64,000 nucleotides of DNA from Glycera tridactyla (taxonomy: Eukaryota): contig OZ286470.1 of the NCBI GenBank assembly GCA_965644265.1, positions 65,782,001-65,846,000 of the forward strand, in the 5' to 3' direction. Each line of letters starts with the position of its first letter. Within the stretch, counting starts at the first letter, position 1. Shown in pieces: positions 13,271 through 50,487 of this stretch. A program made the position numbers and the translations under genes. The notes below the pieces were generated by a model. That model had not been told where the DNA came from. It made no database searches and was given only the letters and a program-made list of their open reading frames with translations.

Positions 13271-13519
13271 AGTGGGTGAGCTTTTACGCGCGTTTTTCAC
13301 GATGTTGGGAAATTCACACGCGCGAAAAGATCCAAAGTACTTTCCACCAGGTCCGTGCCCATGCAATAAAAGCGCCGTCATTTTTTGGGCAGCCACAATA
13401 CATCATCGATCCAGCATCGATTGGCTGCCCTGGGTCATGTGACCTGAACATAGCAAGCCTATAAAAGGGGGAAGATCCTGTGTCAGGTATCACTTTCACT
13501 TCAGAGCCAGAGCAACAAC

Positions 13520-18405: not shown

Positions 18406-18477
18406 ATTCTTCTCGGGGTCGTCAATAGGCTCCGTAGCTATAAGTATGGGATACAATGGCAAGTGCAGTCAGTTGCA

Positions 18478-19149
18478 ATGGATCCCCGCTTGCGAACACC
18501 GTTTACTATGCTGATGGCTGGCAACAGTGGATGTGGAAAATCAACCCTGGTGGCTCACCTGATTGCCCACACCAAGACGGTCTTTGATCGTGTGCCCAGC
18601 CACATCGTCATCTGCTATACTCAGATGCAAGACCTTTACCACACCATCAAGAGGACAGCACCTTGTCCCGTACAGTTTGTGGAGGGCTTACCCGAAGATC
18701 TCCAGACCACACCAAACACCTTGCTCATCATTGACGACCTACAAGGGCAACGCGGCAAAGTCTTCAGTGACTGGTTCACCAAAAAGAGTCACCATCTGAC
18801 GACCTCTGTGATTTATCTGGTACAAAATGTGTTTGCTCACATGCCAGAGCACCGTACGGTCAGTCTCAATGCCCATTATCTCGTCATCTTCAAGAATCCG
18901 AGAGATGCTTCACAGATTGTTCATCTCAGCAAACAAGTATTTCCACAAAATCCACAGCTGATGGTGAGTGCCTATCGTCAGGCAACAGAAGTCGCTCATG
19001 GCTACCTCTTTTTTGATTTCAAGCAAGACACACCCGACCTGTATCGGGTAAGAACTCACCTCTTTCCTGACGCCTCGAGACTATCCACGGTATTTGTCGG
19101 CAAGGAGATGATAAGCGATGCATCGCTGATCTGGAACGTGCCCCAATAA
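18478..19149 (+). CDS. A32/FtsK-like genome packaging ATPase
   Basis: Walker A GNSGCGKST, Walker B LLIIDDL, RTVSLNAHYLVIFKNPRD; TATA-like ctataag at ~18439. Confidence 0.93.
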   Translation: MDPRLRTPFTMLMAGNSGCGKSTLVAHLIAHTKTVFDRVPSHIVICYTQMQDLYHTIKRTAPCPVQFVEGLPEDLQTTPNTLLIIDDLQGQRGKVFSDWFTKKSHHLTTSVIYLVQNVFAHMPEHRTVSLNAHYLVIFKNPRDASQIVHLSKQVFPQNPQLMVSAYRQATEVAHGYLFFDFKQDTPDLYRVRTHLFPDASRLSTVFVGKEMISDASLIWNVPQ

Positions 19150-19204
19150 ATACCTCGACCCACATGTGGCGCATCATTTCCGATCTGGACGTTGCTGGTG
19201 AAAC

Positions 19205-19576
19205 ATGGCATCACTCAAGAAACATGCCACGGTGATTCGCGTCTTGAGCAAAGCCAAGCCGGGGTTGGTACGCAAGATTATCAAGTCGGCAGACAAGAGC
19301 TTGATCCACACACTGTGCGAGTGTTCTTTCAATGTTATAAAAGGACACGTTCCCATCACATCGTGTCAGAAGGAGAAACTCAAGCGACACAAGAAAGGCC
19401 TGCGAGAGTTGGTCAAAGCTGAAGTGTCCTTGAAGAAAAAGAAACACATTCTTCAGCGTGGCGGATTTGTTGGTGCCTTACGGGGGACACTGGTACCGCT
19501 CGCCATTGAAGGTATTTCAGCTGCGGTTCGAGCCAAGAAACGAAACGCCAAGAAACGAAGGAAGGGAAGAAAGTGA
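19205..19576 (+). CDS. Small basic Polinton protein (probable core/DNA-condensing protein)
   Basis: 123 aa, K/R-rich, CEC motif and LQRGGF protease-site-like motif; position between ATPase and INT. Confidence 0.75.
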   Translation: MASLKKHATVIRVLSKAKPGLVRKIIKSADKSLIHTLCECSFNVIKGHVPITSCQKEKLKRHKKGLRELVKAEVSLKKKKHILQRGGFVGALRGTLVPLAIEGISAAVRAKKRNAKKRRKGRK

Positions 19577-20262
19577 TGGCCAAAAAATTAGCCCTCATCG
19601 ATCCCGAGCTGCTGGAAAGACTGATCAAGGGGAGCACCACCCAGCCGTCAATTGCTCCAGCAGAACCTCATTTGAAATCGATGAACACTCTCGATACAGA
19701 GATGAAGCAAGTGTTGGATCAACCCGGTCTCAGTCAAGACGGTAAAGTGAAACAGTATAATCAACTTCTTCAATGCTACATGACATTGGACGACAAGCGC
19801 TTGGATTCGGTAGCACAGCCTACACCGTCCACCACCACCACCACCGACCATTGGGAAACCGACATCATCGAAAGTGTACCAAAGACCATGCGTCGAAGGG
19901 CAAAATTGCTTCTAAATCGAATTAAAGCTAGTAATGGTTTACTGGGATGGAACGAACGTGGTGAAATCATAAGAGACGGTCATGCGGTGGCAGGAACCAA
20001 TATTGTGGATCTGGTCAATGACGTGATCCGGCGTCGCAAAGGTTTTGATCCTGAAGGCTGGACATCGTTTGCGGATGGCTTGAGGGAGATGAACGTGCCT
20101 CACGACGCAGTGGGTCATCCAGATCGTTGGGCATGGATTCGTGGAGTACAAAAACCCGAGTACGGAAGCAAGGTCTCACAATCGACCAAGAAACGTAAAG
20201 GATCGCCAGGAGGGGTGAGCAAGAGGAAGCCAAAGTTGAATTGGATTAACCTAAGAAAGTGA
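19576..20262 (+). CDS. Polinton protein of unknown function
   Basis: Intact 228-aa ORF coupled by a TGATG overlap; WNERGEI...GTNIVDLV...GWTSF motif pattern that I recall from Polinton core genes. Confidence 0.75.
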   Translation: MAKKLALIDPELLERLIKGSTTQPSIAPAEPHLKSMNTLDTEMKQVLDQPGLSQDGKVKQYNQLLQCYMTLDDKRLDSVAQPTPSTTTTTDHWETDIIESVPKTMRRRAKLLLNRIKASNGLLGWNERGEIIRDGHAVAGTNIVDLVNDVIRRRKGFDPEGWTSFADGLREMNVPHDAVGHPDRWAWIRGVQKPEYGSKVSQSTKKRKGSPGGVSKRKPKLNWINLRK

Positions 20263-20263
20263 G

Positions 20264-21343
20264 ATGACGAAGAAAACGACCAAAACAGAGAGACGATGGC
20301 AGTCGATCTACTTTAATCCAACAAAAGAAGGAAGTCTCGGAGGAGTGCAGGCACTGAGTCGTGTTGCACGTACACATCCCCGTCAGACCCAGGCCTGGTT
20401 GGAAAAACAAGAAGCCTATACTTTGCACAAACCCATCACGCGTCATTTCAAGCGTCGACGTGTCATTGTCGGTGGCATCGATCATCAATGGCAAGCGGAT
20501 TTGGTGGACGTGTCGGCCCTGAAAGCCGCAAATGACGGTTTCACTTACCTGCTCACATGTATCAATGTCCTGTCCAAATATGCCTGGGTCTTCCCTCTCA
20601 AAGACAAGACGGGTCGGAGTCTAGTGAGGGTATTTACTCTCATTCTGAGAAAGGGACGTCAGCCGCAACGGTTACAGACAGACAAGGGAACAGAATTTAT
20701 CAATCGGATCTTCCAGGGTTTCCTAACAAAAGAAGGCATCGACTTTTTCACCATAGAAAATGACGACATCAAAGCCTGCATTGTGGAGTGTTTCAATCGA
20801 ACGCTCAAAACGAGAATGTGGCGGTTCTTCACAGCCAGAAAGACCTCGCATTACGTTGACGTCTTACCAGCCTTGGTCAAATCGTACAATGCATCCCACC
20901 ATCGCAGTATTGGAATGGCCCCCAACCAAGTGACTCGCAACAACAGTGAATCGGTATGGCAACATCTCTACGGGGAAAGGCGTCCAAAAGCAAAGCAATC
21001 CAGACTGCGTGTTGGGGACCACGTTCGACTTGGGAAGACCAAGCGTCACTTTGAGAAAGGTTACTTACCCGACTGGACGCAGGAAATCTTCTCCATTACC
21101 CGTGTGATAGAAAGCCTACCGGTCATGTACCAAGTGGTGGACGAGAAAGGCGACAAAGTGAGAGGCTTGTTCTATGCGGAGGAACTTCAGAAAGTCAAAA
21201 AGCCTCGAGTACATGCCATCGAAGCCTTCCTCGATCAGCGACGTCGTGGAGGTCGTCAACAGTATCTGGTCAAGTGGAAAGGGTACCCCAGTTCCATGAA
21301 TTCGTGGATAGATACCCGGAGCCTGCGAAAGTATAAAAGCTGA
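20264..21343 (+). CDS. INT: Retroviral-type (rve) integrase with C-terminal chromodomain
   Basis: WQADLVD, LQTDKGTEF, IVECFNRTLK (DDE); C-terminal IEAFLDQRRRGGRQQYLVKWKGYPSSMNSW chromodomain; intact 359 aa. Confidence 0.96.
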   Translation: MTKKTTKTERRWQSIYFNPTKEGSLGGVQALSRVARTHPRQTQAWLEKQEAYTLHKPITRHFKRRRVIVGGIDHQWQADLVDVSALKAANDGFTYLLTCINVLSKYAWVFPLKDKTGRSLVRVFTLILRKGRQPQRLQTDKGTEFINRIFQGFLTKEGIDFFTIENDDIKACIVECFNRTLKTRMWRFFTARKTSHYVDVLPALVKSYNASHHRSIGMAPNQVTRNNSESVWQHLYGERRPKAKQSRLRVGDHVRLGKTKRHFEKGYLPDWTQEIFSITRVIESLPVMYQVVDEKGDKVRGLFYAEELQKVKKPRVHAIEAFLDQRRRGGRQQYLVKWKGYPSSMNSWIDTRSLRKYKS

Positions 21344-21373
21344 GTGCGCCTGACCACGGGGTCCATTGTTCCA

Positions 21374-21667
21374 ATGGATTTGCCAGGAGAAGGTGTGAGC
21401 CGCAGCAGCAGCACCCGTGCCAGCCGGACGGATTGGATGTTGTGTGGACGCAAATTTCCTCGAAGCGAAGTGGTCTTCTTTTGTCAGACTATCATTTTGT
21501 ACATTGTGATCCTGGTCAGCTTGTACAATTTGTCACGTGGACACAAGAATAGCACCCTCTGGACAGCCCTACTGAGTGGCAGCCTTGGAGTCATCACACC
21601 ACCGCCAGACATCACCACCAAGATCCGCCTGAAATGTAGTGACGCCAGTGCCCTCAGTCAAGTCTGA
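21374..21667 (+). CDS. Small two-helix membrane protein of Polinton
   Basis: Hydrophobic VVFFCQTIILYIVILVSLYNL and LWTALLSGSLGVI segments; lies between INT and penton. Confidence 0.65.
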   Translation: MDLPGEGVSRSSSTRASRTDWMLCGRKFPRSEVVFFCQTIILYIVILVSLYNLSRGHKNSTLWTALLSGSLGVITPPPDITTKIRLKCSDASALSQV

Positions 21668-21671
21668 TAGC

Positions 21672-22433
21672 ATGTTCTATGTCACGTTACCGAGCAACAG
21701 CTCGCTAGCCTACTTCCCCGAGAACACGCTCACTCATTATCGAGTCCGTCTACCACGGACTATCAACCTCGACGGTGAATGGGAAGTCGGACTGGCAGAA
21801 ATCCAGTACCCACACAGTTGGTACGACCTGCACGGCACTGCTTGTCATCTACGTGTGCGTTCCAAACCTGAACGGAATGAGCCCATAGACGAAATCCTTA
21901 CACTCAGTGAAGGATACTATGCCAGTGTGACCACGTTGGTCAGTTGCATCAATCACCAATTGAAATATAAGTGTAAGATGAATGTGACCAGATTCATGTA
22001 CGACAGCATCACGCAGAAAGTGGCGCTTCGCATCCCGGCATCTATGGAAATCAAATTGGACCCCAGTCTTCATTGCCTGCTGGGCTTCGACGAGAAGGAA
22101 GAGTGGCTGAGTCATACGCACTGTCATGGTGAATATGTTGCCGATTTGAGCCAAGGGTTCCATAACCTGTACGTGTATGCCGATATTGTCGAACCTCGCA
22201 TTGTCGGCGACAGTATTGTACCACTTCTGAGGATCGTACCCATCAAAGGAAACAACGGCGACGTGGTGGACGTCGTGTACAACCCCATACACTACGTCCC
22301 ACTCCAATTGAAGCATTTTCAGTTGGTGGACGTGTATATAAGGGACGATGCAGGTGAACAGGTCCCATTCGAACGTGGTAAGGTTGTGTTGACACCTCAC
22401 CTGAGACGTCGTCCTTTGCTCTCACAACGATGA
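21672..22433 (+). CDS. Minor capsid protein (penton, single jelly-roll)
   Basis: MFYVTLPSNSS...ENTLTHYRVRLP..I.LDGEWEVGLAEIQYPHSW and LYVYADIVEPRIVGDSIVPLLRIV, hallmark Polinton mCP motifs. Confidence 0.9.
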   Translation: MFYVTLPSNSSLAYFPENTLTHYRVRLPRTINLDGEWEVGLAEIQYPHSWYDLHGTACHLRVRSKPERNEPIDEILTLSEGYYASVTTLVSCINHQLKYKCKMNVTRFMYDSITQKVALRIPASMEIKLDPSLHCLLGFDEKEEWLSHTHCHGEYVADLSQGFHNLYVYADIVEPRIVGDSIVPLLRIVPIKGNNGDVVDVVYNPIHYVPLQLKHFQLVDVYIRDDAGEQVPFERGKVVLTPHLRRRPLLSQR

Positions 22434-22873
22434 TGGACATGGAAGCATACTACAGTCAGCAAGTAGGCAGTGGATTGCCCTTTTATGCGGGTGCCAGAAT
22501 GCAACGCGGTCATGGGCTCGGAAGTATATTAAGTGGCCTGTTCAGAGCGGCGGTCCCCCTGATCAAGAAAGCTGCGGTGCCAGCACATAAGACAGTTGCC
22601 CGAAAAACGGCAGCATCCGGTGTGAGGGCATTGAAGAAGCAGGCACTCAAGACAGGCGTGAGGCTTGCTTCCGATGCTTTGAGAGGCCGGAGCATGAAAG
22701 ACGCCGTCGAGTTTCGCATCAAGGAGGCAGGCATGGGCCTGCTGGGAAAATCTATAAAAAGAAAGACCCCCACACAGACTGCCAGTCGGCGTCAGACCAA
22801 GCGGAAGAGAACATCTTCGGGCAAGAAATCGAAGCGATCAGCCAAGAGAGTCAAGCGTGACATATTCGACTGA
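22430..22873 (+). CDS. Basic core protein (adenovirus pVII/pX-like)
   Basis: YYSQQVGSGLPFYAGARMQRGHGLGSILSGLFRAAVPLIK then a K/R-rich tail; directly upstream of the MCP. Confidence 0.75.
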   Translation: MMDMEAYYSQQVGSGLPFYAGARMQRGHGLGSILSGLFRAAVPLIKKAAVPAHKTVARKTAASGVRALKKQALKTGVRLASDALRGRSMKDAVEFRIKEAGMGLLGKSIKRKTPTQTASRRQTKRKRTSSGKKSKRSAKRVKRDIFD

Positions 22874-22874
22874 G

Positions 22875-32666: not shown

Positions 32667-33580
32667 GGCTGGCTACCGGTCTGTTGTATTGTATGCTGCG
32701 AGGGGCGGTCGAAGGTACGGATCACCAAATTCGTCGCGTTCTCCTACGTTTCCTCCTCTTCAATATGCTTCAATAAAGTGATGTGGAGTCTACCTCTCTT
32801 CTTCGTGTTTTCACTATGAACTACTAGTGTTAGAGTGTCACTATAATTCACAAGAGTTCCTGTATGTGGGGGTAGAGTGTATACAAGGTATAACACAACT
32901 CGCTTGAATAGTGATGTATAAAGCAGGCCGTTAAGCTCTACTCAGTGAGGTACTGGATCTTCATGGAGTCGATGTTGTAGCCGTCCGTCTGGTGGTCCGT
33001 CCCCTTCTATGCCCCTGGGTATAACGTCTGGTAGTGCCCGAATTGCAGTACCCCGATTTCTCGATTTTCTGGGGATTTTATAGTAAAGTGAGGTATGCCG
33101 TTTCTAAGCATACCTCGGCCAATTCTGACGTATGCGTGGCATGAGTCGTATTGGTGACTAATAAGGTGTCCGACATGATCGGGAGGTGCATTCCTCACCG
33201 TCTGGGACCATTTTTGGGTTCCTGGGACCCGGCAGTGCCGAGATATTGACCTACAAAACCTACGGCACTTGACTACAGTAAATAGGTCAATTTTGACGTA
33301 GGACCGGCAATTTGGCTTGTTCAATGCCTTATATAGAATGTTCTTGACCAATTTCCAAGAAATCCGGTGGTTCTGGCGCTTGTAGCTCGTATGATAGCCG
33401 CTACTGCGCTTCGAACCTGGTACCCCCTCTAGGAAGTATTGGTCTATTAATATTTGCAGCGTCAGACTGGCCATGGGCTAAGCCGCGCTCAGTCTTTTGC
33501 CCGCTAGCTTTCGTTCCAATCGGACGTATGTATGCTAGCTCTTCAGGAATCATATATATCAAGTGAGTGGCTCCATAATA
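32661..33580 (-). repeat. 3' LTR (920 bp)
   Basis: TATTATGG...CCATAATA; matches 47675-48594 with about 4 substitutions seen by eye. Confidence 0.97.
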
Positions 33581-33582
33581 CA

Positions 33583-33595
33583 TGCTCCTGTTTTT
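33583..33595 (-). other. Putative polypurine tract
   Basis: Minus strand AAAAACAGGAGCA, 2 nt before the 3' LTR; short and imperfect. Confidence 0.45.
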
Positions 33596-34904
33596 AAGGA
33601 TTTTAGCCCTCTAAAATAAAAATGAAAAAAAAATAAAAAAATGATGAAAGATGCATAATCGTTATCATAAAATAAGTAAAATTATTTTGTGATTTTTGAT
33701 ACCCTTCTTTCCTTCTTTCTCCTTCTTCAAAGAAGACTGCCCCAGCTGTCTCCATGTTCAATCGTATGTAGGCGTCTCTGTCACATGTGTACCTCCTTTT
33801 CGAAGCCGCTCAACCCGAGTAATTTATTTTGACAATAATACAACAATAAATATATGAATAAATATGTGAATAATACATGCATTTTATTCACAATTTTGAG
33901 GTACGGCATGTCTCAAATCATTGGGTCCAATATTCCTACAACATCAGAATTTCACTCAGCATGCGTGTCTGTAATCGTGGTTCGTGTAGTATGCGTGTAT
34001 ATGTGTCTTCATGCTGTGTATAACTAGTAATAACGGAATTCACACACTACAAATGTATTCACTAAAATCCGACAATTTCGTAATTTATCAAGAGTGCACC
34101 CCGCCGACACACCCGACTTTTATCAGCACATCTTCAAGAATCCGCGACCGTGATTGGTCCAGTCGGTTTTGCGCATGTGTTCGTGGGGTCACTCCTTCAA
34201 AATTGACAAATTGTATCCCGAATCCGTTTGAAAAACGAAGTCTATCGTAGTTAGAGGCGTGAGAATCATAAGGTATGGCTGGTATTTCCTAACGAAATCC
34301 TTCTCCATATATCCTTCATTAATATGTGATAGTCGAGGCTCAACCCTTATCTGGCAGCTGCTAAACCCATCTACACCGCAGCTGACCTGAATATTTGCTG
34401 CGATCCCTCGAGAAAGAGTGATGGGCTTGTCTGGCAAACCACTCGTGTAACAAATTCATGGTTTCTCTAATGTGCATTCCTTGTGTCTAACAAGGGTACT
34501 GTGGGTATAAAAACGTCAATATAGACCCATTTACTATCTGGGGAAATTTATCAGGATCTTGTGCCATACCTGTCGTAGTATAATACCCCAAGTCTGGAGA
34601 CCAGACTTCACACTCTGCAGTTATGGGTCGTTCCCTCTGTATCATCAAACGTATCCTATCTGCCTACCTAAATGCAACCAGTCTTCATTACATAAATGAA
34701 ACTGGGCTCGCTACTACCATCGCCACGTCTACCGAGTATCCCCCTATGGATACAGATGAATGGTCATGGTTATGGTCATGGTTATGGGTCCTTATACCCA
34801 TAATCTTTCTTGCGTTTGCGTTGGTTGGTCTGGTTTGGGTTACATAGCGAGCATGCAAGAAGTCCCAGCCGGTAAGTACCGTTTTTCTGTCAATCAACAA
34901 CAAG

Positions 34905-34962
34905 TAACAATAAGTAACAATAAGTAACAGTAAGTAACGATAAGTAACGATAATTAACGATT
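34905..34962. repeat. 9-bp tandem repeat (taagtaaca/g) inside the retroelement
   Basis: About 6 direct copies. Confidence 0.85.
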
Positions 34963-35528
34963 ACCCCTAGTCTGTGTTTCTGCATGTGTGTTATCTGGCA
35001 TGGTGTATTGTGATATGTGTGGGTATAATCGTACCTGTATATCAGACTTCTTCAGGTTTTTGCTTCCGAACTGATCTGACTAATAGCCAGTCGTTCGTAC
35101 TAATCGTCATTGAAACTATCATCGTTACGAGCGGCTCGTGTCAGTGTCTGTATTATGACTTGTATATCGAGTTCCACGCGTTACCAGTCAAGCGTGTAAT
35201 CGTAGTCGCCCAGACCTTGCCTGGCTTTCTCGCTGCCCGTAACATGATCGTTTCACTCTGCGCTGGTTCACTAGTCTCTAGGCGATGCCGCCGAAACCAT
35301 AGGATCAGCTTCGTATAACAGTAGAAGTCATATTTGGTACATTCCTTTTTATGGGCTTGCGAGGCGAGCATTGTAATCACTGAATCGGTCCCCACGGCTG
35401 TTCGTAACTTCCATTTAGCCGAGGCGATCGTTAGGGTGTAAGATTACATTGCTCACCCAGCAGCATCTCCCCATGGGAATAAGTATTAGAACATGTATCT
35501 CAGTGGTACTCCATTCTCTGATCGTATT

Positions 35529-38400
35529 TCACTGGGAACAATTGCTTTTGAAACAGAATAAGTCTAATGATAAGATAATAAATCGTAAATCCTTCCATTG
35601 TTGACTAATAGCAGGCCTATTAGTCGTTTGTACCGCGATTTCCCGTCTTTCCATTATTTCGTAAGAATCTTCATCACTAACAGATGGTGGTGGAGGTATA
35701 TTCCTTAGAGCTGTTACGAGCGGCTCTATTGCTCGCGGATTTGATATGGGTGGCTGTAATGGCCTTTTTGCGATTTTGTTCCAAGTAGCCTTTTTATATC
35801 TGTATAGAAACCAGCCAGCTATCAATATGGCTGCTAGCAACGATACCGCTATTATTAGCACAATGAGTATCGTTAACCAGACACTTCTCTGCTTTCTCTG
35901 GTCGGTGTGGATCAGATTGAATGGGTTAAGGGTCCTTCCCTTCAATATTTCGTCCATCGCTTTATCCAGATCCATTCCGAAAGATATCATATCATCCAAG
36001 CCCAATTTTTCATCTTCTGTAGTAATATCCAAGGACGGTGTAGGGATGCTTATCTATCGATTTTGCATACCTATTCTTCGTGTATTCTACTAATAAATCC
36101 ATATTCAGTCGTCTCGATAATGCTGGGATATTTACAGGAAAATCGATTTCCTGCGACATTTGTCTGTCCATACATCCATGTATAATAGGTGATACTGACA
36201 ATGTCCTTCCCCGTCCGTCTGTTAACGTAACTTGACATGCACAATCCTGGCTGACCACACAAAACCTGCATCCTTCCCTAACCATTAACGCCCTTGTTGG
36301 ACAACCTATTTAAATGGTTTGAGCATTCATGACCAGCAACCTGCCTGGAGCCAATGAATGCACATCCATTATATCTTCGTCCATTTCCAGTCGATAGGAA
36401 CAGTGTTTTGCAATTTTCTCGTTGTCCCCAAGATATAAGCTCATGGCGCATGTTGGGTGGTAGGTATCATGGATTGTGGTCATTTGTTTGCAATGCACCG
36501 TATGTGATTTGGTACATTGGATGAAGTCCATTTCACTCATTTCCAAAAATCTAGTATTGTCTATGGATATACCAAAAATCTTGTTGGGCGTAACAGGCCT
36601 AGTTACCAAACTCGCATTTATTGTGGCGGGTACGCTGAAGGTGGATAGCTTGAACAGTTTGAAACTCGCATCTGTTGAACGTAGAGGAACCGTGATATGT
36701 ATTACCAGCTTGTTGTTTCTCCATGAGTATTCTGGCTTTGCATATTTATAATATGATGCTGGCCTCATATTCGCAACCCTAAACACAATAAATTCCTTCC
36801 TTACATGCTCATCAAGGTCTTCTAATGCCTTAAATAAGGTTTCCTCCGGTACTATCGTTGAAGACAGCTCATTTCGTAGTAGAGAACGTAGGCCGGTCAT
36901 GAAATTGTTCATTTCCCTTTCTACGATTGTTAGATCTTGTAGCAAGGTGGCTATCATTGAAACTGCGAACGATGTATATTGTACACTTGCATATAGCCTT
37001 TTATTCAGATTTTCTATGATCGTTGAAAATTTGTTGTCCACATGGTTAATAGCCTCTCCCATCTTTATGAGATGTTTGTTGTTGGTTTGTGCGAGTGCAA
37101 CCGCTTGTTTTTGGAAGGTAATGACTTTATCCGCCATATTAAATTGATTGTCTTCCAGTGTTTTCAATGCCTTGTGTATGTGTTTGGCTTCATCTTGGGT
37201 TACTACGCCAAATAGCGAATTCAGAATTTTTCCTCCAAAGTTGAACAATCCTCGTTCCTTCCTTCTCTTGGTGTCACCTGGATTGTACTCTGTGGCCTGT
37301 ACTTGCTTTATGATGATTCCCATTTCTCGTATGTCAGTTTCGGTTGTTTTCATAGCAAATACCACTGAGTCAATCAATTCAATGAAGTCCGTATCGTCTG
37401 GTGTGACTTCCGAAGTCTCTCGTCTCTGCCTTCTTCCTTGTTTTGGTTCCGAAGTCTTGATTCTATTGAGTTGATTTACGTAGTATGTACGTAACTCATT
37501 TGCCATAGCTTGGAATCTATCTGTTAAGTAGTGGACATGACCGCATATATAGGCTCCCTGCGATTCCCATTCTGAAGTACCTTTCGTTCCATGTCCTTTG
37601 CATTTGCCATCGTACGCATGCCTTATGTTTCTCAGGCTTCTCTCAGCTTCTTCTAACGTGACATTCCATTTGCCTTTTATAACTTCGTCTGGCGTTATCC
37701 TGGGATCATAAGGGTTCGTGATATTTTCTAATTTAGCTAGGGCTGTCCCAGCTTCCCATATACCCCTCATAATGATATTGTCCTGTCTTGGAGTATCTTC
37801 GACGTATAAAGCTTCCTTTAATGTATTCAAAGCTGCTTTGAGTGAAGTGATGGATCTTCCCATCTTGATTTTCTTCATTGTCGTAGATCTTTTTGTTCTG
37901 ATTCGTGCATTTGCTCCGTAATCCCATCGTGCGTTAGTCATCATCTCATGTAGTAGATCCATAGATATAGCGGTTCTGGTTGCCTTGATTTCATTCAAAA
38001 TTCCTTTTAGATACATACATGTTTCGTTGTTTGTGTCTTCTTCAATGTTTTCACCCAGACATTGATGCCATTGAAGGCATTCTCCATTCTGGTTCGTAGC
38101 ACATTGAGTATGATTGTTCACGTCTGTGAACATAGTAGGGATGTTCACAATGAACATCAGGTTGAAGGTCGCTGTCGTAGGGATATAGTTACCCTCTATA
38201 GGTGAAAAGTGAGCCCCATAATTTAATCTTTCAACTGGATTCATCCCAGTCGAATCAAGAAAATCCTGGTTCTGGTTATCGCTTGCATCTTGTTGTGGAC
38301 TTCCCATAGCTCCACACCATGAGAGTATCATAAGTAATATCATCAAAGAGCAGTCTTCTCCAATGATCCATCTTTGGTGCCGCTTTGGTCTATTCACCAC
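35529..38400 (-). pseudogene. env: Envelope glycoprotein, class I fusion, baculovirus-F/errantivirus type; one in-frame stop and one frameshift
   Basis: Signal SLMILLMILSWCGAMG; KRRKER|GLFNFGGKILNSLFGVVT fusion peptide; heptad region; Cys-rich segment continues past TAA 36310-36312 (GCRFCVVSQDCAC); frameshift ~36050; TM VWLTILIVLIIAVSLLAAILIAGWFLY. Confidence 0.92.
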
Positions 38401-39005
38401 TGCAACACATAAAGAGGGGATAGGGACCCATAAATACCTGTGCCTAGGCCGACTTATTGACAGTATAATGGATATTATAATTGTCTAGAACTTTTCTAAC
38501 AGACTGTGATGTAGTGTAGGGCGTTGTCATACAACAAGGATAATCATAAAATTTTTATATAAATTCATGATTTCTACTGTGTGTTTGGATCCGTTTCAAT
38601 GGAATGTCGGCCTGATGCGGCATTTTTACAGGTTCCCTATTTCTCCCTATTTATCATAGGCGTTTGCCTTTCCTCTTTGCTCATTGCGTTTACTGTCTCT
38701 TTCTATGGCAACCGCTCCGGTTTGACCAATACCCTTTTCGCGCGTCCGTGTTCCTTCACCTTGGTGAATCCACACCTCGATTTGTATATTTTCTGATACT
38801 CTCTCGTAATTCCCTGGGCTCCATTTGCTCGAAGCTGCTCCATCATTTGTTAATATGAGGGAGGTATGGGGTTACCTCCCTCTTATCCCGCCCCTTGGGC
38901 TCCCATGGGACCTTCAGGCTTATTTCCTGGGCTTGCTCATCCCCTTTACCCCTGATTTCCATCAGTTGTAAATCTTACTTCGAAGAGGCAACATCAGTAT
39001 CCATA

Positions 39006-39629
39006 ATGTCATCTCAGAATATCGTGGTGGCTTGTATCAGCCAGTTCTGTTCAAACGGAATAGTGGGAGTCCACTATGACGAGGAGCGAAGGGAACTACG
39101 TATTTATAGTGGGAGGGTCTCTACCAGTTATGATGACCACATTCTGGATGAAATACGTAGTTTCATTCGAACAAGGGAGATAGTTGGCTATTACTTTGAT
39201 CAAGAACAATGCCGTGCTTCACTAATTGTTAGATTCAATGGTGGCATTGTCGTTAATAATGCAAGAGCCGGTGCCTATAGGCGCAATCATGGTTGCTCTA
39301 ATTCATCTGAAGAGCACGAAAATGAGCCTGACAGCAATGAACCAGCCTCTCCCTATGTTGTGAATCAGGATCCTAGGAGGGTTCCTGTTCGGATGTGGCC
39401 GAATTTCGTCCATAGAAATTCTGCCCCTCGTATAGTGGTGCGTCCTAACAATCTGTCACGTCCTGAAGGACGCAATATCGTCGGTCGTGAGGTGAGTGTC
39501 TCTTTTTTATACTCTTTTTTTGTTTTTATTATCGTGCTTTCAGTTCCTTCAGCAACTTCCTCTTCTCTATACGAGCATTGTAGTCCCGTATGTGTTCTAT
39601 TGGCACGATATCAGCCCGTAGCCATGTAG
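39006..39629 (+). CDS. Antisense ORF of unknown function in the pol-env spacer
   Basis: Open frame 38895-39629, ATG at 39006, mostly outside pol; internal repeat IVGVHYDEE / IVGYYFDQE; consensus donor GAG|GTGAGT at 39491/39492. Confidence 0.5.
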   Translation: MSSQNIVVACISQFCSNGIVGVHYDEERRELRIYSGRVSTSYDDHILDEIRSFIRTREIVGYYFDQEQCRASLIVRFNGGIVVNNARAGAYRRNHGCSNSSEEHENEPDSNEPASPYVVNQDPRRVPVRMWPNFVHRNSAPRIVVRPNNLSRPEGRNIVGREVSVSFLYSFFVFIIVLSVPSATSSSLYEHCSPVCVLLARYQPVAM

Positions 39630-42600
39630 GCTTCTTGTCGCGCCACTCGCACATGTACGAAACCTTTCCATTCTTCGTTGTGGACGTTATGACTTTTACT
39701 AGTTTCGACATGTCCGGTGTGCTCGCCTTGCTATCATTCTTCGGTTTGAAGCTGATTTCTGGATCAGTACTAACTATATCTGTGTTTGACTTATTGTTTC
39801 TTTGCGCATGTTCTCTATTCACAAACGTTCTGTCTCGCTTTCGTCGCCTGGTTACAGGCTGGATGTTTGGAAGGGTAGAAGTTTCAGATTCCATACTTTC
39901 ATTGTCTTTTTCTCTGTGTGATTTTGCAGTTTTCTCTCTATCTACTGTATTTTTCGTATTTCCAATTGTCCGTTCCGGAGTTGCATTCTGTCCGTCCTTC
40001 TTGGTCCTTTCGGTCCCTCTCAGGGTAGAATCCGCCTCCGGTGTGAATTTCTTCAGTCTATTTTCTGGTATTAGATGTTTGAGGTTATGATTGTTGATTC
40101 GTAGTAAGTGGAAACCTGGCTTCGGAGTTGAGACTATGATGAAAGGCCCTTCGTATTTCTGGCTAACTTTGTATTGCGAAGGAACCCTAGGGGTTACTAT
40201 TTTTGCCCAAACCATATCTCCTGGTTTGAAACCTTTGTATGTAACCTTCTTGGCTGTATCGTGACGCATTTTCATGTTTTCCGCATTTTTCCTGACATTT
40301 CTGGCTGCTATGTGTCGTATAGCCATTAAATCAGGCCATATTGAAGGAAAAACTTCTTGTGGTGGGACATCTCGAATTATTGGAGGTTCTTTCGTTATGT
40401 CACCGGAGAGGGTTGGTTCTAAACCATACATGATTTCATAGGGTGCAAATCCATGAGATTTGATGGAGATATCATGAGACCAACGAACATGAGGCAAAAA
40501 TTCCGTCCATGATTTTTCAGGAAATTCCATCATGCATGCTCGTAGTGAGCAGAGAATACTAGAATGTAGTCGTTCCACTGCTGCATTGGCCTGAGGGTGC
40601 CAGGAGGTTATATACTGTAGTTTGATACTAAATTGTTCTGCCAGGTATTGAAAGGTTTTAGACATGTGAGCTGCCGCTCTGTCTAATACGACCACCTTTG
40701 GAGGTCCAAATCTTTGAATCCACATCTTCATAAAATATGTAGCCAGGGTTTCAGCCTTTTCATTTGGAATAGTTTCGATCTCAAAGTGTTTTGAAAATCT
40801 GTCTACGATAACTAGTACTTTCAGGTTCTTATCTTTCGTTGGTGCAACCTTTAAAACATCCATGTGTATTACTTCAAATAATGAAGCCGGTGGTCTTAAT
40901 AAAAGGGGTGTCCTTTTATTATTATAGTCCCTTTTAGCTTGACCGCAGGCTTTACAACTAGCCACAAATTTAGCCAAGTCTTCGTACATTCCTGGCCAGT
41001 AGAATCGTTGCCGAACGATTTGTAGTAGACTGTTGAAACCTCTGTGGGATCCATGTGTTCCATGGTGGAATAGTGCTGCTATTGCATACCTCCTAGCATG
41101 TGGTAAGTATATCTGGTGAAATGTTTTATTGCTCGTGTTGTTGTGGAATTTCCGGCATAAAATTCCGGAATTTGTAAGCAAATATTTGTCCTCTTCCGCC
41201 ATGATTTTTCTGGCATGAGTCAGAGTCTCTGGCAGAGATTTATTCAATTTATATTGATATAGGAATGACGAATCTCTGTCAGTGGCTTGTTCCAGCGCCA
41301 TTTTTCTTTCGTCTATCATATATTCTGTATATAACTTGATGCAAGCGTTTTCATCCAGTAGCAAGGCTTCCTCGTATGATATATCATCTGAATCCTCGAG
41401 GCCTAGTTGTTTTTCTTCTTTGTCGTATGATGAATCACCCTCACTGTCGGCTATGTTTTCGATCTCCGTCTCGGACATAACGTTCCCATCAGCGTCTTCC
41501 CCACTGCTAGTACACGATTCTTCCGCGTGGCGGCGAGCGCCTCGCTGGAAGCCGGTTTTGGCGGGAAAGGTGGGCGTGGCACTTTTCTCTCTTTGGCCAT
41601 GCTGTTTATCCGTTGTGTCGAACATATCGAATCGCCGCTCTCTGGCTTCACACTCAGATGAATCTATTTCATTGCTGGGCTTGTAAGGCTGTGTTCTGAT
41701 TCCCATTAGACATTCCTTTCTTGCCACTGGTGATTCCAAGAATTCTGTAGTATTGATAAGACAATGGTTGTCACCTTCTTCATCCATTGATAGCATAGGT
41801 TGTTCTACATAAGTTATTCTAGATAAGGTGTCGGCTACAACATTTTCTCTGCCTGGTTTGTGCAGTACACGGATATTGAATTTATTCAAAAACATTTTAT
41901 AACGAAAGAGCCTGCCGGTTCTAGTGGCCAGATTGTGTAGATATACATTTGTTAGATTATCAGAGAATACTGTGATATCTGTCTGAGAGCCTAACATTAG
42001 TTCACATTGTTTCAATGATTCTACGAGTGCTAGGGCTTCCTTTTCATTCGAATGGTAGTTTGCTTGTGACGGATTTAATGTCTTTGACATAAATGCTACA
42101 GGTCTGACTATATTTTCTTCATCTTCCTGCGATATAACTGCGCCTACTGCCCTACCGCTAGCATCTAGGTATACTGTAAAGGGTTTGGCAGGGTCAGGAT
42201 AGTATAGTACCGCATTTTGTAAAAGGGAGGTTTTTATACTGTCCAATGCTTCTTGGCATTCCTCGGTCCAGATAAATTCATGATCTTTCTGTAGGAGTTT
42301 GTTTATTGGTGCTGCTATAGCCGCATATCCTCTGACAAATCTACGATAGAAGTTGAGCGTACCCATTAACTGTCTCACTTCCTTGACATTATTAGGGGCT
42401 GGGAGCTTTATTAGCGCTCCTAATTTGTTAGGATCGGCTTTTACCCCATCCTTGTTGAAGATATATCCCAGATATTTAACCTCGGATTTCATGAACATGG
42501 CCTTTGAAGGCGATATACGTAATCCTACTTGCCTAAGTCTCCACAAAAGTTGTCTCATAACTTCTAAGTGTTTTTCATATGTAGGAGTGGTAACAATAAT

Positions 42601-44476
42601 ATCGTCCATATATGATGTGACGTATTTTGAGTCCAAAGTGGCTAAACACCTGGAGATGATGCTTGAGAATATTTCTGGGCTTGAATTTAGGCCCATAGGT
42701 GTTTTTGTAAAGGAGTATTTGGCATTGCTAGTATTTATCGTACAGATATCAATACTATCTGGTGCCAATTGAACTGCATAGAATGCTGAAGCCAGATGGA
42801 CTACGGAGAAGACCTTGTTTTTTCCTGCCGCTAAGGTGGCAATGATATCGTTAATTGTTGGTATTGGTGATTTTGAGGGAACTATCATTTTGTTAAGATT
42901 GGAAAAATCAACCACTAACCTGGGTTTGATGGGTTTACCATCATCATCATATTTGTATACTACAAAGGTGGGTACACCCCACATAGAATGCGATGGTTTC
43001 AGTATTCCTGCCTCTACTAATTTTTGAATTTGTTCATCTAAGTCCTTCTCCTGCTGTGGAGGTAACTTGTATGCTCTTTGATTTACAACTGTTGCTTCTG
43101 GCTTTATTTCTATCCTGTGATATACATCTTGTATGACTGCTAACTCACTCAGGTCTACGGCAAATGCCTCTCTGTTATTATCCAGAATAGATAATAATTC
43201 CTCTCTATATTCGTTAGCCGCAGGTTCCAACGATAATATATCGTTCCAAACGATAGGTTTGAAAGTTTGAATCCTAGTCTGGTTCGAAATGTCTACTTCT
43301 GTTTGAGTTGATATTTCTCTACTGTTATCGTATTCTTCCTCCACAACGAAAGGGGTGGAATAGTCCTGATGCGGCCACAATACTCGCAATGAGTTTATTT
43401 GTTCACCGCTACATGGAAGTGGCGCTGATGGTCTCGCTAATGCGGAACGTTCGCCTATGTATACAGAACCTGGCATTCCTCTCTCATTAGATGCAGGTCT
43501 GGCCAAGTGGGCTTGCGCAATGGTAATCTGCGCATCTGAATCTATATATACGTTCTTTGAAGTTGGATTCGAAACAGATACTAGGAATGTATTATTCTGG
43601 CTTCTGAAGGCAATCCCCGGAACCGTCGATAATTGTGGGGTATTCTTGATTATTTCATATGAAATATCTAAGGAATCTGGTTCTTTCATGTAGTTTGGGG
43701 TTATTGTATTCTCACTATCAGCAGTCATATCGATATAGCAAGAAATCATTGCGGTCTCCATAGGTTTCATAATCGTGGAATCTGATGCTTTCAATGTATA
43801 TGAGCATTCCTTTACAGTTGTCATCAATACGCTGGTGATACCTCCTTCTAGATGCAATCTGCTCTCTGAATAGTCAATTTTCGCCGCAGTTTGCTGGAGA
43901 AATGGTACACCTAGGATGACTTGTAAGGGTATGGCTTCCACCACGAGGAATCTGACTAATATTTCCTTACTATTAATAGTTACAGGAATACTCACTGATC
44001 CTATCACTTTCATTTTCTGTGCTTGCGCATCGTATAGTTCTACCTCGTGTTTCGTATCTATTTCTCCCCTTAAATCTAACTGTTTCAGCATGTCTTCTGT
44101 GATAAGATTAGTTGTAGCCCCATAGCCTACCATAGCCTACCATAGCCGCTATTTGTACATGTTTGATATATATTCTAATGGAGTTAAGTGTGCCTAGCTT
44201 CTGACGTATTCGGTTTCTATCACCTGTTGACAGCGTTAAGGATGAATTGACCCTCTCTTTCTTTGTCATGTTTCTATCATCTACTCCTTTGATACTATAC
44301 ATATGCCTACTACTGTTTCCTACGTTACTGCCACTACTAATATTTTTTTTATAAAATTTCACTACAAATTCTAACAGATCGCAATGATCAGGGAGCGTAT
44401 GCTCACAATCTATCCCTAATGGACAATCTACCCAATTAAATGCACTCGTGACCCTATTTACGACATGCCCTCTATC
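39529..44476 (-). pseudogene. pol: Pol polyprotein PR-RT-RNaseH-IN(+chromo-like); protease site disrupted by a 10-bp duplication
   Basis: PR ILGVPFL; RT PRLVVDFSNLN, YMDDII; RH YLDASG, EKEALA, SDN; IN HHCC, IHMD, VLDRA, VERLH, GPF; C-terminal YMCEWRDKKPTW. Frame continuous from 44476 once one catagcctac copy (44121-44140) is removed. Confidence 0.96.
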
Positions 44477-45639
44477 CTAGTGAGAAAAAGGGTTATTTGA
44501 CCCTATGTTTCCTGTCGGCCTTGGTCCCTGGGGAGTGTAACCCTGGGAATAGCCCTGGGAATATCCTTGAGAATATCCCTGCGGATTCTGCCCATTATAC
44601 TGTTGGCCCTGAGAATTAAACTGTCCCATGGTCTGGGTCTCTCTTACTTTATTGATGGCTTGAGCCATAAATCCGTCATGGTGCTGAGGATTAGTGATGT
44701 TGACATACGCCTTCATTACTTTGAAACAATTACCTGATGTGTGCCCAGGCTTTAAACATGCTTCACAGACAGGTGTATTTTTATCTATTTTCTTATTATA
44801 ATTATTATATGTTCCAGGCCCAGGCGTGCCCCAGGAGGGAGTCCCAGGCGGGGTCGAGCTCGACATCTGATTCAAGCTGGTGAGTCTCTTTTTGTGATCT
44901 CCGTTGGAGATCACTATGCTGCCACCCCTCTGTTCGAAATGCTTTCTAACTTCGCCGATTCTGACTCTTGAGGCTGATATAATCAAATGAATCATGATCG
45001 GATCTTTGTAAAAGGATCAAATGATCTAATCTAACACGATTTTAAGATGATTTACTGATCTGATTAACGACAATTTGAAGAAATGTAGCGATTACGTAAT
45101 GGGCATTTCGCCATACATTCGTTTTTGTTGCCGATCACCGAAGCACACAGACATGACCGCTCAGCTGCGCCCAAATAGTAAATGCCCGAATGCTGATCTC
45201 TGATTGGCTGATTTTACACATGCTGTCTACAACTCCATTCATAAATCGGCGCATTGATCATGAAACCTGGTAATGAGGTGCGAAGAAGAAGCACTACTTT
45301 ACTTCCCTACGAACTATCTTATCAACCAAAACACAGATTTTTCGAGATTTATACATGGAAGTAAGACAAATGGATGTCGGGGAATCAAGAGAGAGACAGA
45401 CAGACAGACAGAAAGACAGACAGACAGACAGACAGACGGACGATTTGGCAAAAGTAGTCCCGGCTCTGAACCTAATAAGCATGAATGAATTTCTTGCGAA
45501 CGCTTCTGTTTGTGATGAAATGTGGCCATAATGACACAAGACAAATCCACGGGTGGCTTGCTCATGACTCGCTACCCCATATTCCTGAAGGAGGGCTCGT
45601 CAGTACCCCCACCCGTCCGTCTTTTTCTCTGTGTCTGTT

Positions 45640-45703
<64 letters not shown>

Positions 45704-47647
45704 TATCATCGTCAGTGAGGTGGTGGTGGTTGTTGTGGTAGTAGAGGTGGTGGATATGAAGGTGGTGGTGGCGGTTGTGGTGGGTATGAAGGTGGTGGTG
45801 GTGGGTATGAAGGTGGTGCTGGTGGTGGTGGAGTTGCATGGTGATTGTTGTGGTGGTAATGGTGGTGGTGGTGGGTATGAAGGTGCTTTTGCCATTGCTG
45901 GTGTCGTCGTCGTCGTCATCATCGTCATCTCTCTCTTTCTCTCTCTTTCTCTCTCTTTCTTTCTCTCCCTCTCTCTCTCTCTACTTCGGAGATCTCTCTG
46001 CGCCCCTGGGCGCTCTTGTTACAATCCCTAGCTATGTGGCCTATCTTACCACAATGGTAGCATGTGATTTTTCTTCTAGTGTCTTGGTCCCCTATTGGTC
46101 CATTATTTATCAACTCCCTTATTGCATTCAAAAGTTCCTTATTTTCGGGCGATTCTTTCTCCTGTTTCTGAGGTACCTTTGGGTCTTCTGCCTTTTCTTT
46201 TATTATTGGTGCGGTTGATATGGCTGCAACTTTGTCCGTCAGTTGCTGCATTCTTTCTGGTAAACTGGATAGTGCCTCTGAACTGGGCAATCTTTTATCC
46301 AATTTATCCATAACTACACTGATAGTCGCATCCATTGTTGTCTCCGTAGCTATTTCTTCTAAATTTCCAGCAGTTTCCGCTGCTTCTAATACTGAGTCCA
46401 CGGTTAATGGATTTGCCATCAACATGTAGTTTTTTGCAACTGGGTTCAACCCAGATAAAATGATACTTTTGTATTCACCAAATTGCGCCTGATTAAAGGC
46501 TTGTCCTTGTTTTAATTTGAATAAAAACCTACATTTATTCACTATCCTCATACAAAATTGTTTAGGTGTTTGTGCTGCACCCTGTTTGGTTTTATACAAT
46601 TTAGCCCTAAAGGCAGGCTCACTGTTTCCCTGCACACAGTATTCTGCAAGGAATCTTCTTTCTATTTCCTCGAAAGAAGTGTCTTTTGTGACATGGACAG
46701 TGGAGTACCATTGCTTCACTGTGTCACTGAGGTTAAATGGAAAGTGTCTGACCTTTTCATAGTCAGAGAGTCCGTGTAATGCACAGTATTCATTGAATAG
46801 GTCCAACCATTCAATGGGATTGTTTTTGGCTTAAAATTGCTGCACCTTGACTAGACTCTTATCTTTTACTACAAAAGTGTGCTGAGCTTGAGGCATAAAA
46901 TTCGGTGGTTGTGTAGAGGGTGGGCCATGGATGGCCATGTTATGTTCCACCAGTCCTGTTTTTGGACGGGTACCTGTCCCTAATGGGACGTCCTTAGGTG
47001 TGCTTGTCCTTGCATCAAAAGATGTGTGATCAATGTTCGACAAAAATGGATCATAAGCTTCTGGTATTCTATATGTGTAGCGAGGGGGGGGGGGGATAAT
47101 ATGCGTTGTCAAAAGAATGTAATTCACCTGTCCTTCTTCGAGATGAATTCCTTCCCGTGACTTCCCTTGGCGTATTTCCTTGACTTCTATTTTCCTGGGA
47201 CATAATCCCTGAATACCTGTTTTCTTGTAGTGTAATCCCTGAATTTCTGTTATCCTTCTGTTTCAGAGCCTTTGAGAGTCGCTGATGTATAGCATCCTGT
47301 ACGGACTCCTCATCGCCGCCATCTTCACTGCTTAGATCCCCACCATCCTCTGCATCCGTGTCCTCTTCATCGTCTTCTTCAGCCGCTTTCTCCCGATCTT
47401 CTTCAATCTGCCGCTTGTCAACGTCTTCTGCAGCTTCTTCGCCATCTTTCCCTGCAATTTCTTGATTTTTGGACAATTCTTTCCCTGCTTTTCTTGTATT
47501 TTCGTCATCGGACATGCTCGCTTGCGCCGCTTGGCTTTTGAATGTCACCTCGCCGCCGCTATCGCCTTCCATATCACCTAGCTCTTCAGCCCGTACGATC
47601 GTCGTCGAACGTGTCGTGTCCGTATACGTTTTAGAAGTCTGTTCCAT
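44477..47647 (-). pseudogene. gag: Gag with acidic N-terminus, capsid domain and two CCHC knuckles; disrupted
   Basis: ATG 47647; frameshift in G12 run 47084-47095; TAA 46831-46833 in VQQF*AKNNPIEWLDLF; CYHCGKIGHIARDC and CEACLKPGHTSGNC; 1-kb insertion; TAG 44477-44479. Confidence 0.92.
44980..45981. mobile_element. 1002-bp microsatellite-rich insertion in gag flanked by TA
   Basis: TA at 44978-79 and 45982-83; removing 1004 bp restores in-frame ISEV-SASRVRIGEVRK. Contains (GACA)n, (CT)n and (GGT)n. Confidence 0.85.
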
Positions 47648-47658: not shown

Positions 47659-47672
47659 CAGCTTCTCCACCA
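47659..47672 (-). other. Primer-binding site, probably tRNA-Ala
   Basis: Minus strand TGGTGGAGAAGCTG 2 nt after the 5' LTR; complementary to the ...CUCCACCA 3' end of eukaryotic tRNA-Ala. Confidence 0.75.
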
Positions 47673-47674
47673 TA

Positions 47675-48594
47675 TATTATGGCTGGCTACCGGTCTGTTG
47701 TATTGTATGCTGCGAGGGGCGGTCGAAGGTACGGATCACCATATTCGTCGCGTTCTCCTACGTTTCCTCCTCTTCAATATGCTTCAATAAAGTGATGTGG
47801 AGTCTACCTCTCTTCTTCGTGTTTTCACTATGAACTACTAGTGTTAGAGTGTCACTATAATTCACAAGAGTTCCTGTATGTGGGGGTAGAGTGTATACAA
47901 GGTATAACACAACTCGCTTGAATAGTGATGTATAAAGCAGGCCGTTAAGCTCTACTCAGTGAGGTACTGGATCTTCATGGAGTCGATGTTGTAGCCGTCC
48001 GTCTGGTGGTCCGTCCCCTTCTATGCCCCTGGGTATAACGTCTGGTAGTGCCCGAATTGCAGTACCCCGATTTCTCGATTTTCTGGGGATTTTATAGTAA
48101 AGTGAGGTATGCCGTTTCTAAGCATACCTCGGCCAATTCTGACGTATGCGTGGCATGAGTCGTATTGGTGACTAATAAGGTGTCCAACATGATCGGGAGG
48201 TGCATTCCTCACCGTCTGGGACCATTTTTGGGTTCCTGGGACCCGGCAGTGCCGAGATATTGACCTACAAAACCTACGTCACTTGACTACAGTAAGTAGG
48301 TCAATTTTGACGTAGGACCGGCAATTTGGCTTGTTCAATGCCTTATATAGAATGTTCTTGACCAATTTCCAAGAAATCCGGTGGTTCTGGCGCTTGTAGC
48401 TCGTATGATAGCCGCTACTGCGCTTCGAACCTGGTACCCCCTCTAGGAAGTATTGGTCTATTAATATTTGCAGCGTCAGACTGGCCATGGGCTAAGCCGC
48501 GCTCAGTCTTTTGCCCGCTAGCTTTCGTTCCAATCGGACGTATGTATGCTAGCTCTTCAGGAATCATATATATCAAGTGAGTGGCTCCATAATA
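47675..48594 (-). repeat. 5' LTR (920 bp)
   Basis: Direct repeat of 32661-33580. Confidence 0.97.
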
Positions 48595-50487
48595 TATATA
48601 TATATATATATATAAATGTACAAAATACAAACTGATGCTCCGATACAGGACTGTTTCCAGGTTGACGAAATTCAGTTTTTCAAAGTCAAAGTCTGTTCTG
48701 CCGATGGGAGAGTGGCTGGAAAAGTTTGTTTTTTTCCTGTGAAGACATGTGGCATACGTTGATGACATATGTTTGTGTTACGTCATCAATATCAAAGCAA
48801 TGTGGGTGATCAAGGGACACGTGTTTCGATCGACTCAGATCAAAGCTACGATCTCGTGACACTGGAGCCGCATCCTACAGGAAGTTGATGGAAGACCTAC
48901 TTGTACTTGTGATGGACTCATCCTGCCAGCGGATGTTATGTTAAGAATGATATTCGGATGCAACAAATACGATTACAATACGCTATTTGATCTATCAGAT
49001 GAGTGAAGGCCCTCATCCATCATGGATGTTGGTCATGCTATCTGGAATTTCTATCGACTCCAAGTACAGCTTAAGCTGTCCATAGAGGCCATCTTCGGTC
49101 GCATCAAAAGGTGGCCTTTGTAGGCAGGTGACCTTTACAGAGAGGCCACTTCGAGAATACTATCACGGTCGCGGTCATGATAGTATTTTCAAGTGTAAAT
49201 GAGCTCTTCTCAAATGTACGAGAATTTAGAGTTTCGTTTCTCATTCTCACCAGAATTTTCTGACCCGGGGGAGTCTTGAATGATTCCACTCATGCTTATT
49301 GCATGGGTATCTTAATTTAGTCCAGAAGATGTTCGCAGCACATCAACCAACCAACCAACTGCCATGTCTTTGGACAAAATAGGGCGAGGGGTGGGGTGTG
49401 AAAGGAGGTTTTACCATACTCATCTTCCCTTGCCTCACAGCAGCCCCGGGCTCGATGATCCGACCTGATTGCATGACCTAACCATGACAGCTATTAGATG
49501 CTCCTAATCATGGAGTCAGGCCGATGGCTGTCTCCCTGCCTCCATTAGGGGTAGTAGGCATTGGAATGAGCTAGATGAACTTATCAAAACAACAGACAAT
49601 GTCAAATCCCTACCCTAATACTTGAATACATGTGAGAAAGAGAAAATGACAGGTCTTTGGTCAATTTGCAAATAGACGAAGTGCTGTGCATTATCCCAAA
49701 CTCCTCATCTTTCTTTTTTTTTTTTTTCGTTGTGTTTCTTGCTGGCCATATATGTATTGAATATCTGTCAATAATTCATGTTGCAGCTTGTATTTCATTG
49801 TCAGTTGCACGTATATTTCTAATGAGTTTTGTTTTCTTAGGTTGTCAGATATGGGAATATATCTCAGAGGAAAAATAAAGTTTGAAAAAAAGCAAATTCA
49901 AGAGTGACTTAAGTCATCACTTTTGATTGTTTTGGGAGAAATATCAAAATCAGCATCTATAGACTCCAACCATGACCACTGATCTACACTTTCATGGTAA
50001 GCATGCAACCACACATGAAGAAAACAAAGAGCATTATTTTAGTATATCATATGACACACGCTTTGCAGATGATCAATTTCACATTCAACACCATGGAAGA
50101 TCACACCATGAACTCGACATATCCCACCTCTTTTGGAATATATCCAAACCAGGTGATTCTTTCACATGAAACATCTTTATTCACACAAATGTAAGTCGTT
50201 TCACAAGCAATCGTGGTCAATGAACATAACTTCATGTAACACATACATACATACAACACGAGACTGGTATAACTTATTACAATCATGGAGAACAGGGTAA
50301 CGTAAATGTAGATATTGTAAACCGTAGAAGACAGGCAATAATTAATATAGAGATACTCAATAGGTGTGGTTCTATGGATTGTTAGGTCGGGAAATCGTTT
50401 TAGCTGCTGTGTGGCTTCCTTGAGTTTGTTACACCAGCTTCGTAAATGAGATTGTGTGGTACACCTACTTAGTAAATACTCGACGAA

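Follow-up and report, generated by a model that had tools for sequence, protein, structure and literature searches.

A minus-strand Ty3/gypsy element in the window (the whole 64,000-nt stretch of Glycera tridactyla DNA analysed here) carries on its opposite strand, between pol and env, an exon that is almost certainly a real protein-coding accessory gene. This exon, which we call AS2, is kept open across copies under purifying selection, and the first-pass annotation of a dedicated antisense gene was therefore borne out. That annotation had also proposed a complex element, and the complexity exceeds the proposal, since a second antisense exon, AS1, was found. What seems new here, judging by the literature surveyed, is the presence of selected antisense accessory genes in a Ty3/gypsy element with an F-type env, whereas antisense aORFs themselves were already known.

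The host element and its copies

In Pfam searches of the minus-strand element, pol matched protease, reverse transcriptase (RT), RNase H and integrase, gag a zinc knuckle and env Baculo_F. LTRs, PBS, PPT, gag, a PR-RT-RH-IN pol and a downstream env were all present, which assigns the element to the env-bearing Metaviridae (Ty3/gypsy) under the definition used (PMC7879559). As listed in Table 1, gag, pol and env are all broken in the window copy, and its LTR pair shows 99.5% identity (5 mismatches in 923 nt). Intact lengths in other copies are about 700 codons for gag, with an in-frame TAG, about 1645 for pol and about 915 for env. The single TAG at 44477-44479 between in-frame gag and pol suggests stop read-through. 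The family has at least 150 copies in the source genome, as judged from a protein search in which 150 of 557 candidates were scored.

Table 1 Features of the element and its antisense exons in the window
Feature	Position	Strand	Remarks
3' LTR	32658..33583	-	plus-strand donor motifs (one at 33563); TATA-like motif at 32917
AS1 antisense exon	34623..34871	+	about 78 aa (75-93), ends in donor
env, F-type (Baculo_F)	35529..38343	-	frame broken near 36050 in window copy
Candidate env acceptor	38400	-	conserved in diverged subfamilies compared
Candidate acceptor, pyrimidine-rich	38940..38965	+	40 nt before AS2 ATG; inferred
AS2 antisense coding exon	39006..39491	+	ATG to phase-0 donor, 162 codons
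Splice donor GTGAGT	39492..39497	+	after AS2; GTAAGT in most diverged copy
Length-variable T-tract	39498..39531	+	indels in 24/29 copies; inferred intron start
pol, PR-RT-RH-IN	39529..44476	-	frame broken near 44130 in window copy
gag	44477..47647	-	interrupted in window copy; in-frame TAG links gag to pol
5' LTR	47672..48597	-	plus-strand AATAAA at 47786, then U-rich tract

Several minor characters of the element were recorded. The LTR termini are TATTATGG...CCATAATA and not TG...CA (32658-32670, 48580-48600), the flanks seen were mostly (TA)n runs, and a 1.1-kb microsatellite-rich insert within gag (44894-46012) is not in the other aligned copies. We take the PBS to resemble tRNA-Ala and the end of pol to be chromodomain-like; a Pfam search gave no match for the latter. 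Two conserved stretches, 34960-35530 and 38485-39005, contain frameshifting indels and are non-coding. They are likely cis-elements; RNA structure prediction over the conserved non-coding sequence gave no strongly structured response element (lowest z -2.9), and an Rfam search returned no family.

AS2 is a selected exon within a longer open frame

The pol-env spacer, 1045-1185 nt long in this element, contains a stop-free plus-strand frame of 256 codons (38859-39629), and only 3 of 2000 simulated spacers had a frame of at least 224 codons. The longest minus-strand frame within the spacer is 81 aa, which agrees with the earlier statement that there is no long sense ORF here and hence no shadow of pol. 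The gene had been placed at 38895-39629; the open frame was confirmed, but the limits had to be redrawn to the selected exon given in Table 1. The codon at 38895 is a TTG without support as a start, and selection begins only at the ATG at 39006: the 49 codons upstream of it gave ω 1.5, and a ratio of 0.76 in a separate variant count, indicating no selection, and in diverged subfamilies frameshifting indels lie directly before this ATG. Base -3 of the ATG is A in all 70 distinct contexts, while -2 and -1 vary. Among 29 close copies the exon has no indels at all. Indels farther upstream occur in all 29; these do not count as independent events, some of them being differences from the window copy that several copies have in common. 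At the other end, the sequence after the donor is length-variable, so that read-through would append unrelated tails; with the T-tract indels (Table 1) and read-through products that end differently, the tail 39492-39629 could not be retained as coding.

The exon encodes a conserved, predicted alpha/beta domain of about 95 aa, an acidic linker and an Arg/Pro-rich tail. An internal repeat reported for the N-half is present but weak, as 43 of 5000 shuffles reached its score with a split chosen post hoc. A TAATG stop-start overlap before AS2 was rejected since it is not conserved across copies.

AS2 is under purifying selection

The ω values were obtained with the GY model in IQ-TREE from 26-30 copies each, as point estimates without intervals. 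They were 0.065 for the AS2 N-domain and 0.19 for its C-part (30 copies), and the same method gave 0.084 for RT, 0.085 for capsid, 0.14 for integrase and 0.14 for env. Conservation of the AS2 exon is at least that of reverse transcriptase. Variants shared by at least two copies were 43 synonymous and 22 nonsynonymous, compared with 24 and 52 for private variants (Fisher p 5e-5). When three further diverged subfamilies, with exons 70-85% identical to the window, were added, the shared variants numbered 96 synonymous and 10 nonsynonymous in the N-domain and 53 and 19 in the C-part. The sense-strand mirror frame, which shares wobble positions with AS2, seemed constrained as well (71/24) but has 5 stops in the reference plus 9 stop variants. 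Within the exon, indels at 70-85% nucleotide identity are in-frame, and the frameshifting ones sit just before the ATG.

The exon contained no stop in 145 of 150 scored copies, these being the best-scoring 150 of 557 candidates and so biased to intact ones. In a sample of young copies that was drawn from protein matches and is therefore biased (LTR mismatches 0-15 where measurable), the stretch from ATG to donor was uninterrupted and 486 nt long in all 20, compared with 2 of 10 older copies (21-52 LTR mismatches), in which env was also broken. The open frame in young copies and its decay in old ones show that selection acted during replication and not after insertion. Across 23 copies, AS2 distances followed those of RT (rho 0.86) and env (rho 0.89), and 0 of 2000 permutations reached either value. 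Kept in most copies with conservation like that of gag/pol, AS2 qualifies as an antisense aORF between pol and the 3' LTR. Third-position divergence is 0.35 in AS2 against 0.17 in RT and integrase, roughly a twofold excess, though the AS2 tree follows pol.

All this leaves hardly any room for dismissing the AS2 frame as non-coding DNA that is open by chance or that shadows another ORF. The lack of AS2 homologs in the collections searched and of a splice joint in unstranded, presumed-RNA contigs would fit such an ORF, but the selection is specific to frame and strand and begins at an ATG, no sense ORF is available to shadow, and the synonymous excess refutes this reading.

Splice signals around AS2

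The consensus donor GAG/GTGAGT noted at first pass was located at 39491/39492. All 42 distinct copies examined have GAG/GTGAG, as do all 29 of a wider set, and the donors of AS2 and AS1 both alternate between GTAAGT and GTGAGT. The YAG of the candidate acceptor at 38965 was kept in 25 of 29 copies and missing in 4, and no ATG occurs within 40 nt upstream of the AS2 start in any of the 29 copies where the ATG was found. These signals make it very probable that AS2 is part of a spliced antisense unit. Contigs from five presumed-RNA runs revealed neither an antisense transcript nor a splice joint at 39491, and some cross the donor unspliced; since the contigs are unstranded, with sense RNA or DNA looking alike, and their RNA origin is presumed, they do not decide on splicing. 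Contig depth over 39321-39920, a measure that cannot rank expression, was severalfold above that of most of the internal region in these runs and flat in one of them.

Candidates for the continuation of the transcript were also considered. A short intron from 39491 to 39543 was rejected as a general feature because its AG is lost in subfamily B, and in two older subfamilies because the acceptor lies merely 37-38 nt from the donor. The plus-strand frame 39584-40090 was dismissed as the next exon, as its wobble positions are shared with pol and stops in this reading frame are rare throughout, and a plus-strand frame in the LTR was dismissed as a second coding exon, being frameshifted and not conserved. 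No second coding exon was found after AS2, and no pol window showed clear overlapping constraint.

AS1 is a second, hypervariable antisense exon

AS1 lies on the plus strand between env and the 3' LTR in every lineage examined. Of 30 stretches, 27 have both a start and a donor, and no start was found in the other 3. Among the 27 donors, 22 are GTAAGT and 5 GTGAGT, and 25 are in phase 1. In the window copy a premature stop is present and the donor phase is shifted. In the alignment the product starts with CxxC and ends in basic residues; between these are an N-glycan sequon, a Thr-rich stalk and a hydrophobic segment, and C, H, N, W and Y occupy invariant positions. A single-pass membrane glycoprotein is predicted from these features. 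A search for families or homologs of AS1 gave nothing credible.

The 24 open copies gave ω 0.22, with 3 broken ones left out, and a mean distance of 0.415. In 23 copies the AS1 distances were unrelated to those of RT (rho -0.01; 1028 of 2000 permutations) or env (rho -0.04). AS1 is hypervariable, falls into several allele classes and recombines independently of gag/pol/env. Since AS1 is unlinked to RT and env while AS2 tracks both, AS1 behaves as an exchangeable cassette and AS2 as part of the core. The stretches flanking AS1 are conserved but non-coding, the interval from the AS1 acceptor to the AS1 start contains several ATGs, which is a point against the antisense unit proposed below, and a 115-codon plus-strand frame at 34971 was rejected as a gene because of frameshifting indels.

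Homology and fold searches with AS2

A word-index search with AS2 yielded 43 candidates, none at E 0.01, and a wider one 7995 candidates, none at E 0.1. There were 0 matches among 1.84 billion representatives and no homolog in metagenome and viral contigs, and searches against Pfam, PHROGs and PDB sequences gave weak matches only. The collections searched hold few animal transposon proteins, so this absence does not prove novelty. In Pfam no bZIP match was found, PF04195 (TRP28) was unmatched at E 0.1 or 10, and SMC was unmatched as well. The KTSC domain, which we assumed as a lead, had no Pfam match at E 10 and was absent from the fold-search listing of the pLDDT 51 model.

AlphaFold models of AS2 were of low confidence (pLDDT 36 and 51). 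Both contained beta hairpins and no long helix, and a helix-hairpin unit appeared twice, in agreement with the weak internal repeat. Fold searches found common arrangements only, the best (VIA Z 7.6) being to designed proteins and not interpretable, and there was no viral match at E 0.001.

We consider it quite improbable that AS2 derives from a captured piece of a host or viral gene and gives the carrier cell or particle an advantage unrelated to regulation. AS2 does have its own start and splice signals, its excess of third-position divergence over pol possibly reflects a different history, and a distant host paralog could exist because only 150 of 557 own-genome candidates were scored; the searches of protein, viral and metagenome collections nevertheless returned no source for such a fragment.

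A candidate spliced antisense unit driven from the 3' LTR

On balance, we favour the reading that the AS2 exon belongs to a spliced antisense RNA from the 3' LTR and encodes a soluble regulator of the element's transcription or RNA handling. A single antisense unit is suggested by the conserved plus-strand donors in the LTR, the acceptors before AS1 and AS2 and the poly(A) hexamer of the LTR. The 3' LTR, with a promoter motif read from the sequence, is the candidate start, and an origin of the antisense RNA there is favoured to a similarly modest degree. The AATAAA at 47786 and the U-rich tract after it may serve as the antisense poly(A) site; the A[AT]TAAA hexamer is kept in 22 of 24 copies, although motif conservation there is weak evidence because the LTR is conserved throughout. 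A leader from the 3' LTR would be joined to AS1 or to AS2 through the acceptor that precedes it, and either exon would in turn be spliced on to a terminal exon. Introns and a poly(A) signal could persist in accessory genes of antisense orientation, since, given the known replication cycle, they would not be read on the genomic RNA undergoing reverse transcription.

Internal promoters like that of maize Grande gene23, driving AS2 and AS1 in place of the 3' LTR, are a possible alternative to which we give a smaller but real share of belief. Such promoters have a precedent in Grande (PMC7264820), and conservation in the non-coding spacer before AS2 is 92-93%, compared with 76-85% for the exon. 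TATA-like motifs lie at 38555 and about 110 nt before AS1, but the former varies in older subfamilies, several ATGs stand between it and the AS2 start, and a good acceptor is found 40 nt before the AS2 ATG.

AS2 is read as a soluble regulator because of its co-inheritance with gag/pol, its near-invariance and its basic tail; its sequence is without a signal or TM segment. That it regulates the element's own expression is plausible, and we hold this part less firmly than the origin of the RNA; the homology, family and fold searches lend no support to any function. Most arms-race proteins are not near-invariant. The near-invariance of the AS2 domain would thus suit a fixed partner more than an arms race, and it makes unlikely, though still the main rival to a regulator, a counter-defence role in which AS2 would block host silencing by piRNA or chromatin, its own strand allowing expression while the sense promoter is shut. 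A need for AS2 in replicating copies and a plausible independent antisense expression would accord with counter-defence, to which the lack of an enzyme family match is a further objection.

AS1, on the other hand, may be a swappable surface protein, for which entry interference and FAST-like cell-cell spread are leads. Because its alleles lie far apart and vary independently of the backbone, AS1 looks like a module of self/non-self distinction or host conflict. The most far-reaching picture, which we offer tentatively and consider rather doubtful as a whole, is of an animal Ty3/gypsy lineage that has independently turned into a complex retrovirus. Alternative splicing of a second, antisense transcription unit from the 3' LTR would yield two proteins: a near-invariant regulator belonging to a new fold family, and a polymorphic glycoprotein at the surface. 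The latter would be an entry-interference or cell-to-cell-spread module, with balancing selection acting on alleles that lineages exchange.

Comparison with known antisense and accessory genes

Fungal Boty brtn was reportedly described by Zhao in 2011. The first-pass annotation had held that antisense proteins are not a standard Ty3/gypsy feature, which is too strong for the group: plant Retand elements characteristically carry an antisense ORF downstream of pol (PMC11963269), and others are described in Grande, RIRE2 and fungal Boty (PMC7264820; PMC8365987). Like AS2, the ORFs of Retand, Grande (gene23), RIRE2 and Boty (brtn) are antisense, family-wide and conserved, lie downstream of pol and have no known function. 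Unlike those elements, the host element here is F-env-bearing and non-plant-type, AS2 lies between pol and env and matches neither TRP28 nor SMC, and there are two antisense exons, each with a donor, of which AS1 encodes a hypervariable, predicted membrane protein.

In HIV-1 the ASP gene overlaps env. A likeness to HBZ and ASP had also been proposed, and it holds for the organisation only, in that an LTR element with env carries a protein gene in antisense: the element is not a retrovirus proper, and AS2 has no bZIP match, no env overlap and no sequence likeness to HBZ, APH or ASP. HTLV-1 HBZ and HTLV-2/3/4 APH are made from spliced 3'-LTR RNAs (PMC10186651), and the splice signals of AS2, as motifs, fit an RNA of this kind.

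Env-bearing gypsy elements are widespread in animals, and those that Chary and Hayashi treat as metazoan F-type "errantiviruses" (PMC13524379) likewise combine a Ty3/gypsy pol with an F-type env and are multi-copy and young. The main text of that paper makes no mention of antisense genes; its prefilter allowed a pol-env gap of 1000 nt, which is shorter than the spacer of the element here. Accessory genes of animal elements not described as antisense include the rotifer ORF3s (PMC5408684), sORF2 (PMC11952523) and CERV of C. elegans. CERV is a novel accessory protein that the Ty3/gypsy element Cer1 makes from a spliced RNA; it exports Cer1 RNA and is an animal precedent for a self-regulator (PMC10309623). 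The sORF2/FAST-like proteins of MDG1-group elements are 63-107 aa long with an N-out single TM and a juxtamembrane basic patch (PMC11952523), and AS1, as read from its alignment, is likewise a small single-TM protein with such a patch. AS1 differs in being antisense and hypervariable, in its glycan sequon and Thr-rich stalk, and in belonging to an element that already has an env. The N-myristoylation motif MGxxxS/T is not found in AS1, which starts with MD or MA in 26 of 27 copies, the lone MG having no S/T at position 6.

PMC7879559 lists no antisense ORF examples, and in extract PMC8220671 cites plant examples only. Our literature search, whose coverage excluded most subscription papers and Repbase, found no antisense accessory gene in an animal env-bearing Ty3/gypsy element; in the literature surveyed the trait has so far been reported from deltaretroviruses and from env-less elements of plants and fungi. 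Env-bearing Ty3/gypsy elements can thus carry selected, likely spliced antisense accessory genes, which pipelines limited to the sense strand or capping the pol-env gap would miss. The copies of this family, at least 150 and of graded age, allow direct tests of the roles of antisense aORFs, which reviews list as open.

Other features of the window

Elsewhere in the window, the plus strand carries a 678-codon ORF at 7397-9430 and a cluster of long ORFs at 13443-28109. The cluster presumably resembles a Polinton/Maverick (polymerase, packaging ATPase, integrase, capsid).
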